Shown here one piece after another: positions 8,293 through 18,246 of a stretch of DNA of 64,000 nt. The number at the start of each line of letters is the position of its first letter. The first letter of the stretch is position 1. A model generated the notes under the pieces. The model was not told the origin of the DNA. It saw nothing but the letters and a program-made list of their open reading frames with translations, and searched no databases. The translations under genes and the position numbers were made by a program. Origin of the DNA: Promethearchaeota archaeon (lineage in GTDB: Archaea > Asgardarchaeota > Lokiarchaeia > Sigyniarchaeales > SOKP01); NCBI GenBank assembly GCA_048938855.1, contig JBHLLT010000015.1:10833-74832 (forward strand), read 5' to 3'.

Positions 8293-9969
8293 TTATTCAA
8301 TTTGCCTTAGATATTTTTCCTCAATAGAAACCTTTAAAGAATCATAGAATATTGATGAAAACTTCTGGTAAAATTCATTTTTCTTTGACATAATGAAATC
8401 TTTTCCTTCAATTTTAGCAATACTATCATACCAAAAGATTTTACCTTCTAAATCTAGATTAAGCTTTTTTCCAGCTTTGACAACAATTCCTGCTTTTACA
8501 ACATAATCTAAGTTTGACAACGCTTTTTTTAAAAGCTGATGTTCTTTTGAAATTTCTATATCATTTATATTTATATCTAAAATATTTATATCACCATCTG
8601 CCCCAGTACCGAGATTACCTTTAATATTGCCTAATCCTAGGGATTTTACTGGACTTACTCTAGAAATAATCACAAATTCTGAAAAGTTTAAAACTTTTTC
8701 ATTATTTTGGAGAGGATTAGTATTTAGAAATTCATTGTTCATTCCATCCATAAAATTCTGGCGAGCCTCAGTACTTACTAACCAAGTTACAATTTCATGA
8801 ATATCTGTAATATTAGCATAATTTGGGAAATTTAAAGCAAAACTAACTTGGTATTTATCTTTAACATTCAGAGCCAAATCAATAGCATTAGCCCATAATA
8901 CACAATCATGATAATTATTTTTACTGAAATTCCTCATTGAAATAAATGAATCTCCTTCAAATTCTATAGCCGAACTTATCAATTTATGAGGATTTCCTAG
9001 AATATCTTCCATTAACATAGAATTTATTATTCTTCTGTCTGAAGTTATTAATGGATTTACTTGATTGAATCCTAAAAATGCTAGATCAATATCAAAACGT
9101 TTATTCTGATTTAAGAAATCAATAAATTTTTTATTATCACCATCGGGTGCATAAGTATTAGCATGAGCAATATGAAATATTTGGTTTCTTTTAAATTTTG
9201 AATCATTCTTTTGATAATCCTCGAAATTTAGAGACTTTATTCTATCTAATAAAGAAAAAAGATTACTTTTCCCAACCTGAGTTTCATATCCTCCTATATG
9301 AGCGTGAATTGAGTGAGGTAAACCTAATCTTTCATTGCATTTAATCAAGCTTTCATAAACATCTAAAGCTGAAAAATTATATAATCTTCCAGACTGTGAA
9401 ATAGTCTCTTTTAATTCCCTAAAATTCCATGCTTCATTCTCAAAAGGATTATATACTTTAAATCCAAAACCATATGTTTTCGATAAAAGATCGGATAAAA
9501 ATATAGCCATATCATCAGTTTTTCCTCTCTGAAACTCAAGTTCTAAAGGCCAGAAGTTACTAACGTTCAATAACATTGCTTTATCGAGAACAGGTAAATG
9601 TCTGAAGTTAAATATTGTCTGTCTTGCTAAGGATGGGAAGACATTTGCTTCAAGAATAAAAGTATATCCATTTGAAAGATAAGCTTTTGCAATACTTTTC
9701 AAAGTAAGGCCATTCCAAATTTCTTTAAATCTAGTATCATTTGTACCTAATAGTCGTGCCCAGTTGACTTGTTGAGATGCTACATGTGTATGAATATCCG
9801 TTGCTGCAGGTATAATTGTTTTATCTTTTGCATCAATTTCTTTAACATCTTTTTGATTGCTAAATTTTTCCACGATTTTGCCAGATTCAATTAGAATATC
9901 TTTAATTTCACCATTAATATTATTTAAAGGATCAAACACTAATCCATTTTTAATAATTAATTTACTCAT
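8293..9969 (-). CDS. fwdA: Formylmethanofuran dehydrogenase subunit A-like amidohydrolase
   Basis: IIKNGLVFDPLN, DIHTHV, GFKVYNP, LGLPHSIHAH and KGNLGTGADGD motifs; in operon with fwdD/B. Confidence 0.88.
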   Translation of the reverse strand: MSKLIIKNGLVFDPLNNINGEIKDILIESGKIVEKFSNQKDVKEIDAKDKTIIPAATDIHTHVASQQVNWARLLGTNDTRFKEIWNGLTLKSIAKAYLSNGYTFILEANVFPSLARQTIFNFRHLPVLDKAMLLNVSNFWPLELEFQRGKTDDMAIFLSDLLSKTYGFGFKVYNPFENEAWNFRELKETISQSGRLYNFSALDVYESLIKCNERLGLPHSIHAHIGGYETQVGKSNLFSLLDRIKSLNFEDYQKNDSKFKRNQIFHIAHANTYAPDGDNKKFIDFLNQNKRFDIDLAFLGFNQVNPLITSDRRIINSMLMEDILGNPHKLISSAIEFEGDSFISMRNFSKNNYHDCVLWANAIDLALNVKDKYQVSFALNFPNYANITDIHEIVTWLVSTEARQNFMDGMNNEFLNTNPLQNNEKVLNFSEFVIISRVSPVKSLGLGNIKGNLGTGADGDINILDININDIEISKEHQLLKKALSNLDYVVKAGIVVKAGKKLNLDLEGKIFWYDSIAKIEGKDFIMSKKNEFYQKFSSIFYDSLKVSIEEKYLRQIE

Positions 9970-9988
9970 TTCTACAATTCCCTAAATA

Positions 9989-10360
9989 TCATTCTTTAAT
10001 TATATTCAATATTTCATTTATTCCAAGAATAAGATCGTTTGTAACCTCAACATCAACACGAATATTTTTATAAACTGGTTCCTCATTAACAATTCCAGTT
10101 ATTTGATTTGCCCAAATTGAGACAGGCATGTTTATGAATCCAACTGGAACATTCTTATCCTCTTCTGGTCTGATGACAACAGAGCCAAAATTATTTATTA
10201 ATCTGAGATTTAACTTTGGAGTTAAGTTTAACTTTTTGAAATCATCAGGATTGATGAATCCAATAGCTAATTTTTCTTTCAAAGAATTAAAATCTCCAAA
10301 AGAATATTCCCTGACTTGATCATTATCTACCCTCCTTATAGTATTTACAATCAGTTTCAT
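9989..10360 (-). CDS. fwdD: Formylmethanofuran dehydrogenase subunit D (molybdopterin dinucleotide-binding domain)
   Basis: INPDDFKKLNL, GSVVIR, PVGFINMPVSIWAN and YKNIRVDVE motifs; operon context. Confidence 0.85.
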   Translation of the reverse strand: MKLIVNTIRRVDNDQVREYSFGDFNSLKEKLAIGFINPDDFKKLNLTPKLNLRLINNFGSVVIRPEEDKNVPVGFINMPVSIWANQITGIVNEEPVYKNIRVDVEVTNDLILGINEILNIIKE

Positions 10361-10364
10361 ATTT

Positions 10365-11669
10365 TCAACTCTCCCTTAATCTATTAAAAATATTATTTAA
10401 AATTTCTACATCAGAAAGAACCTCACTTGGTGGGTTTAATATCTTTTTTAGCTCTATAGGGACATGATCTAATCGATAAACTAGTCCTTCACATTCAATA
10501 CCAGTTATAGCTGAAGGGATGATAACATCCGCAGCTAAGGATGATGCAGATTGTTTATTGTCAATAAGAATTAAAGGTCTTTTCAACAATTTCTTACTCA
10601 AACTTAAAGGTAAGTGTGAAACTGGATCAGTTCCTACAATTATCGAGCAATCAAAATCCTCTTTATCTATTTTAGAAATAATTGTATCGGTAGTTTCACT
10701 TAACTGACTGTTTGAAAATTGCAAACTATGATTCTTTCCATAACTTGATAGAGCAACATGCTCAAATCCTACCATATTATAATGTCCACCTAACATTATT
10801 ACAGAGATTCGTCCTTTTTCCTGCTTAACATTTACTAACTGTACCAACTCAAGCAGTTCTTTAATAACATCTTCTCCCGATTGAGGTTTTAAAAGTCCTT
10901 GCCCTATAAAAATAACACCATTCTCCGCTCCAGTTAAATGAAGCAATAATCTCTTGAGATCATGTTTATCAATACCAGCTACGCCCATTTCTGGGATACT
11001 GTCTGTAGTACAACATTCTTCTTTCAAAACACGTATTAAATCAATATCTTTTCCACTTTCAATTTGAAGTGCTACATCTCTTACACCCATAACACCAAAT
11101 GAAGCAGTTTTTACTGGATCTATTACAATCAAAGTTTTAATTTCCCTTCCCGTCATTCTAAACTTTCCTCTAGAAAAGAGAGTTTTATTTAATAAACGTG
11201 GAATAGATTCTGCAGCATTAGCGCCCCATAAGATTAATAAATCTGCTTTATTAATAATTTCTGTTATCGTAGTTAGAGTTATTCCAGTTTCTTTTGCTTT
11301 ATTTAATATTTTTCCTTGACATATCACAGAATTAGAATCTATAAACCCATTAATTAACTCTGCTAACTCAATACCCTTTAGTTGAGCTTCACAACTCGTA
11401 GTGGAAAAACCATATAATAGAGGTTTAGAAGATTTTTTTATAATATTAATGGCTTTATCTATAGATTCTTCTAATGTTACTTTCTCTAATTCACCATTTT
11501 TTCTAATAAGAGGATTTAAGATTCGATTTTTGGCGGTAATTTGATCAAATCTTTCTTTTCCTTTCAAACATGCCCCTACGACCTCATCAATATATAAACC
11601 ATCACTTCTTATAATTATATCATCACATAAAAGTGAACAACCTGAACATGTAACTCGTTTACTAACCAT
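10365..11669 (-). CDS. fwdB: Formylmethanofuran dehydrogenase subunit B-like
   Basis: CSGCSLLCDD...ACLKG Fe-S motif, PLLYGFSTTSCEAQ, ADLLILWGAN, GHYN and YRLDHVP motifs. Confidence 0.88.
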   Translation of the reverse strand: MVSKRVTCSGCSLLCDDIIIRSDGLYIDEVVGACLKGKERFDQITAKNRILNPLIRKNGELEKVTLEESIDKAINIIKKSSKPLLYGFSTTSCEAQLKGIELAELINGFIDSNSVICQGKILNKAKETGITLTTITEIINKADLLILWGANAAESIPRLLNKTLFSRGKFRMTGREIKTLIVIDPVKTASFGVMGVRDVALQIESGKDIDLIRVLKEECCTTDSIPEMGVAGIDKHDLKRLLLHLTGAENGVIFIGQGLLKPQSGEDVIKELLELVQLVNVKQEKGRISVIMLGGHYNMVGFEHVALSSYGKNHSLQFSNSQLSETTDTIISKIDKEDFDCSIIVGTDPVSHLPLSLSKKLLKRPLILIDNKQSASSLAADVIIPSAITGIECEGLVYRLDHVPIELKKILNPPSEVLSDVEILNNIFNRLRES

Positions 11670-11711
11670 ATTTCACAACCTTTTTAACTAAATCAAATAA
11701 AGATTAAATAC

Positions 11712-12179
11712 TCACACATAATCAATTTTTACAGCTTCACGTGGACAATAAGTCTCACAAACTCGACATTCTCTTTCTCTTCCTTCTGCTTCAATCCTTC
11801 GACAATGCTCTATTGCTAATAATTCACACTTCCCTCCCTTAACTTGAAACAATTGATGTTTTTCAGGGGGATAATCAGGAGCTTTACCGCTTAAAGTTGG
11901 AGGACAATACCTTGCATTAACGGGGCATACGGTAACACAAATTCCACAACCGTCACATAATTCAGTATCTACATCGATTTTAAGCTCTTTTTCTTTTCCT
12001 TCTTCAGCACCTATTAGATCTTTTAACATGTCATAATTTTTTTTATATTTGGGCTCTAAAAGTGGAGTACAATCATCAATTTTTACTTTTCCCTGTAATA
12101 AATCTAAAGCAAAAGCCATACAGGTTGGTTTCCCACACTTTTTGCAATTAGTTTTCGGTAGAAATTTATACAGTTCCAT
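11712..12179 (-). CDS. fwdH: FwdH-like Fe-S protein (N-terminal FeS-cluster domain plus ferredoxin motifs)
   Basis: LPKTNCKKCGKPTCMAFA...CTPL, CDGCGICVTVCP and CRVCETYCP motifs; first gene of the fwd cluster. Confidence 0.75.
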   Translation of the reverse strand: MELYKFLPKTNCKKCGKPTCMAFALDLLQGKVKIDDCTPLLEPKYKKNYDMLKDLIGAEEGKEKELKIDVDTELCDGCGICVTVCPVNARYCPPTLSGKAPDYPPEKHQLFQVKGGKCELLAIEHCRRIEAEGRERECRVCETYCPREAVKIDYV

Positions 12180-16842: not shown

Positions 16843-16910
16843 ACCGAAACCATTGCTTGGTAGGTCTTCTTGTTACTAATCTTTTTTTAACAAGATTCAT
16901 TCCTTTCGGT
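16843..16910 (-). promoter_or_regulatory. Eukaryote-type SECIS element (AUGA_AA_GA)
   Basis: Minus strand reads ACCGAAA GGA AUGA A UCUUGUUA AAAAAAGAUUAG UAACAAGA A GA C CUACCAAGCAAUGG UUUCGGU. Perfect 8-bp upper helix, UGAA/AGAC quartet, A-rich apical loop and 7-bp basal helix; begins 2 nt after the stop of the TGA-containing ORF. Confidence 0.8.
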
Positions 16911-16912
16911 TT

Positions 16913-17125
16913 TTATATTAGAATTATAAAGTAAATCAGTATTTGGTAATTAATAAAATAATTTGTCATCGACTGGATGATTTGAGGAGGAAGTATGAAA
17001 CCACCTCAACCACAACTTCCATTCGTACCCGCATTTACTAGAATCATAGTAACAACTGTAATAATTGCCCCAAGTCCTACTACACTTAAAATAATCACGA
17101 GTAATTTTCTAAGATCTTCTCTCAT
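16913..17125 (-). CDS. Candidate small membrane selenoprotein (70 aa, Sec at codon 40, C-G-U-G-G motif)
   Basis: MREDLRKLLVIILSVVGLGAIITVVTMILVNAGTNGSCG-U(TGA 17006-17008)-GGFILPPQIIQSMTNYFINYQILIYFIILI-TAA; SECIS immediately 3'. Confidence 0.75.
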
Positions 17126-17220: not shown

Positions 17221-18246
17221 TTAAGAACTTGAGCCTTCTTTATGTTTAAATATTGTATAAATTCCTATAATAAGCGTAAATAGTGCAAAGAAAATCCATA
17301 ATATTTGAACCTGAAGTATTCGTTGTTCTAATATTATTCCAGGGGCGAGAGGAGTAATTACTGCTTGCCAAATTTTCATAATTTGAGTTACAAGTTTAGT
17401 GAGAACTAAGAATAATGCTATGTTATCAACTCTAAATATCTTAAGTTTCTCCTTTATATAGTCAACTCTTTCATAGATTGAACCGATAATATATATGAAT
17501 AATAGTAAATCGATGAAAAATGAAAAAATATCATAAGGGCCACTGTCGCTAAAGATGATTTCTGCTAAAATATCCACAACAAGATAAACAACATAAAAGT
17601 AGGTTAACATCATAAATAACGAAATATAAGCAGCTAATTTCTTAGTAAATATTAATCTAATTAGAGTAATCCCTATTATTGTTACTACGATTAGAAAAAG
17701 CCAAAAGAAACTTCTGGGTATATTAGAAGTTGCTGTGAGGGGGATACTAGTAAAAAATCTAATTGCTAGAGAGATAAACCACCATATGAGAAAGAAGAAA
17801 AAAGAAAATTCGAGAATTCGTGTGAATACTCTGGAGCGTTTTTTCTTGTACAAGTAATCATCAACTTTTATTGAACTATCCATACATAGTTTATAAGCAA
17901 AAAACGCAATTAAAATGGAATCTGTAATGGCAAAAAATCTATATATATAAATTACGATCCATCTAAAAATCCAGAAAACGGGTATTGCTAATATTGCAAA
18001 AATTATGGCGATAATTATTATTAGGGCGCCCATTTCATTAATCGGTTTGAAAAATGAGATTATAAATAACACGAGTGTAAATACTGCTAATGTTCCAATA
18101 AAAAATAAAAAATAAAAACCAAGTTCATAATTTCTAAAAATATCAATTATAAAAGTGAAGAGAAACCAAGATATGATGAATATAATAGCAATAATCAATA
18201 AGAGGGTTTTTTTTGAAAGGTTCTTTAGACCTTTAATAAATCTCAT
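17221..18246 (-). CDS. Polytopic membrane protein, unknown function
   Basis: 341-aa ORF with about 10 hydrophobic helices. Confidence 0.7.
   Translation of the reverse strand: MRFIKGLKNLSKKTLLLIIAIIFIISWFLFTFIIDIFRNYELGFYFLFFIGTLAVFTLVLFIISFFKPINEMGALIIIIAIIFAILAIPVFWIFRWIVIYIYRFFAITDSILIAFFAYKLCMDSSIKVDDYLYKKKRSRVFTRILEFSFFFFLIWWFISLAIRFFTSIPLTATSNIPRSFFWLFLIVVTIIGITLIRLIFTKKLAAYISLFMMLTYFYVVYLVVDILAEIIFSDSGPYDIFSFFIDLLLFIYIIGSIYERVDYIKEKLKIFRVDNIALFLVLTKLVTQIMKIWQAVITPLAPGIILEQRILQVQILWIFFALFTLIIGIYTIFKHKEGSSS

Follow-up and report, generated by a model that had tools for sequence, protein, structure and literature searches.

A predicted family of small membrane-anchored selenoproteins with a eukaryote-like SECIS element in Lokiarchaeia

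A UGA-containing gene overlooked by gene callers

Comparison with its homologs indicates that a UGA-interrupted gene of a Lokiarchaeial genome almost certainly encodes a membrane-anchored selenoprotein of 70 residues. The gene lies on the minus strand of the stretch of 64,000 nucleotides analyzed here (the window, to whose positions all unlabeled coordinates refer). It is highly probable that the UGA is read through, that the lokiSECIS behind the gene recruits the Sec machinery, and that the 70-residue selenoprotein is made. The frame (17125-16913) consists of 70 codons and TAA, with a single in-frame TGA at codon 40: it starts with ATG at 17125, reaches the Sec codon at 17008-17006, continues for 30 codons and stops with TAA at 16915-16913. 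The positions given in the original prediction were all confirmed by re-reading the sequence. With the standard code, no ORF of at least 60 aa was called at 16913-17125, and public assemblies call exactly the 39-aa product of the frame cut at TGA; the gene was overlooked because gene callers stop at this codon. The proposal of a 70-aa membrane selenoprotein that had escaped annotation and has a eukaryote-like SECIS is thus supported. In an alignment of 14 upstream regions, a conserved AT-rich block (17196-17180, minus strand) was observed about 55-70 nt 5' of the ATG, which is a possible promoter of the gene's own.

SECIS element

The element behind the gene (16910-16843, minus strand) was assigned as a lokiSECIS of eukaryote-like type I from comparison of homologs, covariation and the features given in PMC4989117. 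The type of SECIS and the hdrA-mvhD layout of the genome are also in keeping with Lokiarchaeia. Its lower stem (16910-16904/16849-16843) begins 2 nt past the stop codon, the SECIS core is formed by AUGA (16900-16897) and GA (16866-16865), and an upper helix of 8 bp (16895-16888/16875-16868) carries an A-rich loop of 12 nt ending in AG. The hairpin is therefore present as first described, with its AUGA, 8-bp helix, A-rich loop and GA; the predicted distance of about 106 nt between UGA and core was measured as 105 nt from TGA to AUGA and 106 nt to the U of AUGA. Published criteria are a 9-bp stem with an 11-nt loop (PMC4989117) or, in the 2024 survey, a stem of 7-15 bp with a loop of 8-20 nt (PMC11227280). 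Here, 8 Watson-Crick pairs and a basal A-A accompany the 12-nt loop, AUGA precedes the stem and GA (for which AA may stand) follows it, the loop is A-rich at its start and has at its end a G that follows A, as is usual, and the element comes shortly after a coding sequence that contains UGA, in a genome equipped with Sec machinery. The Lokiarchaeial lokiSECIS genes of PMC4989117 have the same AUGA, stem of about nine positions, A-rich AG-ended loop, GA and placement right after the stop; their loop has 11 nt, in contrast to 12 here.

The fold of the hairpin alone had a z of -3.2, and a pattern restricted to the SECIS core gave 9 matches in the genome versus 3-5 in shuffles, which is weak and unspecific evidence; the case therefore rests on comparison and not on the single sequence. 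Among 25 homologs, 97% of stem cells were paired, versus 28-47% in slid controls, two-sided changes occurred in 10 of 14 stem pairs, the UGA of AUGA was invariant and GA was conserved in at least 90%. A SECIS model built from the elements of this family only found matches behind 40 of 42 further copies and then behind 14 of 15 more. The three copies that were missed belong to a distant family (L107, L108 and L157), which keeps G-U-x-C and whose 3' structures start with AUGA or a similar sequence and form a different hairpin. When this genome was scanned with the model, eight other sites were detected at E < 1e-4, each with an in-frame TGA upstream: four follow hdrA or hdrA-mvhD genes in which TGA stands at Cys positions, three belong to a cluster of small UGA genes, and the last follows a frame with two adjacent UGA codons. 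In an Rfam search of the element no SECIS family was matched, and Rfam seems to be without a fitting model.

A small 3' side hairpin (16861-16849), 96% paired in the family, sits between GA and the lower stem. An equivalent was also seen in hdrA/mvhD SECIS elements, and no description of it was found in the passages of the literature consulted. Across the family, the distance from UGA to SECIS varies from about 44 to 122 nt, a range that brackets the minimal distance proposed for the lokiSECIS by Mariotti et al. (PMC4989117).

Distribution and conservation of the family

Genomes of the same class were searched with single proteins and profiles (E up to 0.001). Within the genus, 46 of 53 genomes gave a match, and within the family 91 of 134, some matches covering the helix only; the gene also occurred in all three genomes of another family of the class. 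A profile search of 14 genomes of a neighboring family, closed ones included, did not find the selenoprotein family, and existing cultures may therefore lack it. Outside the class, the profile search gave no convincing TGA-bearing match, and one bacterial match of the single-protein scan was judged to be a chance match. Certain membrane proteins of other classes (L149-L152) have a basic start, one helix and C-x-x-x-C repeats; their similarity is limited to the start of the helix. Cys-rich membrane proteins of this kind were rejected as homologs, the match spanning only 17 columns of basic start and helix.

Altogether 82 TGA-bearing copies, drawn from about 70 genomes, were excised and read. 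TGA and SECIS occurred together in 79 of them, as a co-conserved element would; these copies are kin and not independent, so that this and the other conservation counts are not a statistical test. Two look-alikes without TGA end in TAA and have no SECIS. In a 40-member alignment, whose members are 13-62% identical to the window protein, the Sec column (17008-17006) is the only invariant one. The homology check of the read-through protein accordingly came out in its favor, with TGA retained in about 70 genomes and the frame past it under selection, and nothing that had been named in advance as speaking against a selenoprotein (homologs stopping at this position, an unconserved tail, missing machinery or a lost SECIS quartet) was encountered. 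One homolog (L020:1477-1716, minus strand) has a second in-frame TGA three codons past the first (U-P-C-U), which is either a second Sec or the end of a shortened tail.

An exchange between TGA and Cys codons was also looked for: a single all-Cys copy was seen in a group of acidic paralogs; the main family yielded no convincing Cys-type ortholog of full length, and no clear one turned up among 5.8 billion proteins and 1.84 billion representatives. Database homologs are labeled Promethearchaeota, and the matches are truncations of 39-62 aa or entries that read TGA as Trp. Searches of Pfam, NCBIfam and PDB with 40 members gave generic helix matches only. The acidic paralog group (L140-L148, L083 and L168) has the same basic start and helix, followed by an Asp-rich linker and C-x-U or C-x-x-U, and its members each have a SECIS. 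Its all-Cys copy, L141, reads C-N-C, lacks the TGA and has a weaker SECIS, which may mark a change from Sec to Cys.

Sec machinery and use of TGA

The genome has a tRNA-Sec with UCA anticodon directly before SecS, and about 5 kb away on the same contig an EFSec-like gene, whose match is below the curated cut-off. Two Sec-type selD genes, both interrupted by an in-frame TGA, were also present, as was a PSTK-like gene, whose match likewise falls below the curated cut-off. Of the machinery expected, tRNA-Sec, SecS and selD were thus found, and EFSec in the form of the EFSec-like gene. Within the class, SecS occurs in 153 of 161 genomes. Long ORFs of this genome stop at TGA in 334 of 2489 cases (about 13%) and at TAA in 70%; since TGA is a minor stop codon, one would expect TAA to replace it over time if it were a plain stop. 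Decoding of TGA as Trp, as in some database entries, was rejected, since 334 long ORFs end in TGA and tRNA-Sec is present.

Membrane anchor, orientation and tail

The protein begins with a short basic N-terminus (residues 1-7, 17125-17105), probably cytoplasmic by the charge census below and the positive-inside rule, followed by a single predicted transmembrane helix (about residues 8-30, 17104-17036) that is seen in all homologs and a polar Gly-rich linker (residues 31-39, 17035-17009). The first hydrophobic stretch has a 19-residue Kyte-Doolittle mean of 2.8. In the variable tail after Sec (residues 41-70, 17005-16916), a second hydrophobic stretch peaks at 1.38 on the same scale. A value of 1.6 was reached in only 4 of 50 long tails, and the tails look amphipathic. 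AlphaFold gave no strands and two helices joined by a loose linker (mean pLDDT 69, pTM 0.39); the first helix is confident, the second of low confidence (tail pLDDT 52-58). The suggestion that the two hydrophobic stretches form a hairpin with a CxU loop is not borne out by these tails, nor by seven homologs that end 1-2 residues past Sec; as far as these sequences indicate, the second stretch is not a conserved membrane helix.

Net charge before the helix is positive in 66 of 67 homologs, and the segment from helix to Sec has no net positive charge in any of the 67. An N-terminus inside and a Sec outside are therefore predicted, as originally proposed, a topology that rests solely on the charge rule. 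The protein is probably a single-pass anchor with its N-terminus inside and Sec on a flexible Gly-rich linker, most likely at the outer face of the membrane.

For 20 close pairs, pS was 0.28, pN 0.13 and dN/dS 0.40 before Sec, versus 0.35, 0.21 and 0.54 after Sec; these ratios derive from protein-guided pairwise alignments, which favor low dN. Second codon positions change least in the region past the TGA, and tail frames of 26-33 codons run without a stop up to the SECIS, which happens in 2-19% of shuffles. Moderate purifying selection on the frame past the TGA is suggested by these comparisons. Tail length varies from 1 to over 30 residues among homologs. The family can dispense with the tail, as shown by the seven copies that stop 1-2 residues past Sec; these nevertheless keep about 70-105 nt to the SECIS core, and part of the role of the tail therefore appears to be spacing.

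Cys residues near Sec

In 73 of 82 copies a Cys is present within 4 residues of Sec (at +2 in 48, at -2 in 11 and elsewhere in 14), and in 9 none is nearby. Most family members read G-U-x-C. The C-G-U of the window protein, with Cys38 at 17014-17012, occurs in 6 of 82 copies, which form a single clade (99/94 support) among U-x-C members of a tree that is short and, outside this clade, poorly resolved. C-G-U, as the tree indicates, is a derived motif of one clade, in which Cys was gained at -2 and lost at +2. This swap of Cys across Sec suggests selection for a selenium-sulfur pair. Selenoproteins SELENOF and SELENOM have CGU or CxxU in a thioredoxin-like fold. The tripeptide is shared with them in one clade only and absent from 76 of 82 copies, and the protein has a membrane anchor and, in the model, no thioredoxin fold; C-G-U can thus no longer be taken as the defining redox motif, and as it is derived, the likeness to SELENOF is a coincidence.

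Other predicted selenoprotein genes

Five genes of 67-74 aa with a helix-loop-helix layout were observed on another contig of the genome (C70, 123384-125526, minus strand; L116:658-2749). Each has one in-frame TGA, located in the loop, three read A-U-G, and three SECIS elements serve them. Homologs occur in tandem with SECIS in genomes G007 and G040 and singly in G017, G173 and G006. Kinship with the window family was rejected by profile comparison, and the five genes are predicted to represent a second unlisted family of membrane selenoproteins. A candidate for yet another family was seen on contig C49 (about 285070-285346, plus strand; L119, also L173), where two adjacent TGA codons (A-D-U-U-A) directly precede a SECIS-like element; this frame is conserved in G006. 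Four hdrA loci with 2-4 in-frame TGA codons each are located on contigs C20, C64, C74 and C77 (L113-L115 and L117), three of them with a two-Sec mvhD behind, an arrangement already described for the lineage. In the window itself, FwdA/D/B-like genes and an Fe-S protein gene occupy 8293-12179 (minus strand), and the FwdB-like protein has Cys and no in-frame TGA.

It is likely that Lokiarchaeia hold a hidden set of small membrane selenoproteins, comprising the window family, the acidic paralog group and the unrelated two-helix family, to which this genome contributes six genes. That a membrane-anchored family can be this common while having no enzyme fold and hardly any Cys homologs implies that surveys which start from homology overlook part of the Asgard selenoproteome.

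Possible function

The explanation that we favor overall, with somewhat better than even confidence, is a read-through selenoprotein with an outward membrane anchor and a tethered redox selenol. The last of these, drawn from general Sec chemistry, is the most likely job of the protein, at about even odds. The 3' lokiSECIS would recruit the Sec machinery of the cell and have UGA translated as Sec, which would sit on the flexible linker just beyond the membrane without a folded catalytic domain. It could then attack a disulfide, persulfide, peroxide or oxidized thiol on a partner at the cell surface. The nearby Cys would resolve the resulting bond by forming a selenenylsulfide; members without Cys would form a diselenide or mixed bond to a second molecule. 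The main task of the tail would be to keep UGA and SECIS apart, and it may rest on the membrane as an amphipathic helix. Since Sec is the sole invariant position, the linker is flexible, the Cys changes place and a fold is absent, a tethered selenol is the simplest reading; the nine copies without a nearby Cys and the seven that end 1-2 residues past Sec imply that a single mechanism may not account for the whole family.

No conserved redox partner gene was found, neighbors differing between genera. A single-copy gene for a multi-pass membrane protein of 341 aa with no Pfam match (17221-18246, minus strand) precedes the selenoprotein gene at a distance of about 100 nt in 25 of about 65 loci, all in one genus, and a fixed operon with it was therefore rejected. 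Downstream neighbors in that genus are MFS, ARMT1-like or other genes.

The main rival of the redox selenol is a surface ligand for metals or metalloids (Hg, Cu, As etc.) or a selenium sink, which we regard as unlikely: the model has no folded domain, Cys spacing is loose (-4 to +4), the acidic paralogs have an Asp run before C-x(x)-U, and bacterial Sec-Cys metal-binding proteins are known (table 1, PMC13188914). However, main-family linkers are Gly and not acidic, metal-resistance genes are not conserved nearby, and one Sec per chain would be a poor store of selenium. An adaptor resembling SELENOK/SELENOS, with a cytoplasmic Sec in a membrane complex for quality control or acyl transfer, is improbable. 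The short length, one helix and Gly-flanked Sec would suit it, as would seven homologs from at least two lineages that end in U-G, U-G-G, U-S-G, U-P-G or U-C, but the charges are opposite (basic before the helix, neutral or acidic after), 30 residues follow Sec in the window protein, neither eukaryotic family was among the Pfam matches listed, and the TGA form was found only within this class.

We give very little credence to a selenium sensor or switch, in which what counts would be the proportion of truncated 39-aa peptide to read-through product; it would explain a tail that is weakly conserved and sometimes nearly absent and a truncated form that is a complete membrane anchor, but Cys is kept next to Sec in most members, and downstream genes vary in identity and strand, leaving no fixed gene to regulate. 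The possibility that TGA is a plain stop ending a 39-aa peptide, with an unrelated or orphan hairpin behind, fits the truncated forms of 39-50 aa in public databases and is just as hard to sustain, given that TGA is kept even in members only 13-30% identical to the window protein, whose genome ends 70% of long ORFs with TAA, that the tail is under selection and that hdrA/mvhD genes are followed by this very element.

Comparison with known selenoproteins

With 40 members, searches of Pfam, NCBIfam and PDB revealed no match to the archaeal selenoprotein families listed in PMC13188914, among them SelD, Frh/Vhu, HdrA, Fdh/Fwd, HesB-like, Prx-like, AhpF-N and DsbA-like proteins. In MYXO-CTERM, CFI-box-CTERM and related Gly/Cys sorting signals, a motif is followed by a membrane helix and a basic tail at the end of a larger protein; such a signal was rejected here, where the helix precedes the motif and no NCBIfam match was obtained.

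According to two reports (PMC4989117; PMC11227280), HdrA-VhuD/FrhD, VhuU/FrhA and PrxL are soluble redox enzymes with a lokiSECIS; the RNA signal of the window family and its placement are like theirs, whereas the protein is unrelated. The 2024 Asgard survey of Huang, Xiao and Zhang started from known families, recovered seven and found no eukaryote-specific selenoprotein family (PMC11227280), and the SECIS search of one metagenome by Mariotti et al. in 2016 gave no further candidate (PMC4989117). Both surveys began with known families or Cys homologs, which the window family lacks. The 11 archaeal selenoprotein families of a 2026 inventory are without exception homologs of known enzymes, and nothing like the window family was found among the 119 families of that review (PMC13188914). 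A literature search, with most subscription papers outside its scope, found no description, and the family is absent from the published selenoprotein lists searched. Bacterial selenoproteins with U-x-C, C-x-U or C-U also have Sec beside Cys (table 1, PMC13188914); in contrast to these, none of which is described there as a bare membrane anchor with Sec, the window family has a different SECIS type and no NCBIfam match.

The closest parallel in layout is with SELENOK and SELENOS. Both these proteins and the window family are small, with one transmembrane helix, a Gly-rich stretch before Sec and no catalytic fold. SELENOK/SELENOS have a near-terminal Sec that faces the cytosol, and p97/Derlin or DHHC6-type partners (PMC9344019). 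Sec is second or third from the end in 7 of 82 window-family copies, but usually lies 15-33 residues from it. The orientation predicted from the charge bias is opposite, and a Gly-rich linker of about 10 residues replaces their long Gly/Pro/basic cytosolic region. The 25 Pfam families listed at E ≤ 0.1 include neither SELENOK nor SELENOS. The originally noted likeness thus holds for the layout, and membership fails on Sec position, linker and homology. An archaeal antecedent of SELENOK/SELENOS in this one-helix family, some members of which end in G-U-G, is very unlikely, with no support from sequence and a predicted orientation against it. Nevertheless, the window family offers a direct comparison for the poorly understood SELENOK/SELENOS layout, and brings Sec chemistry to the cell membrane in the archaea most closely related to eukaryotes.
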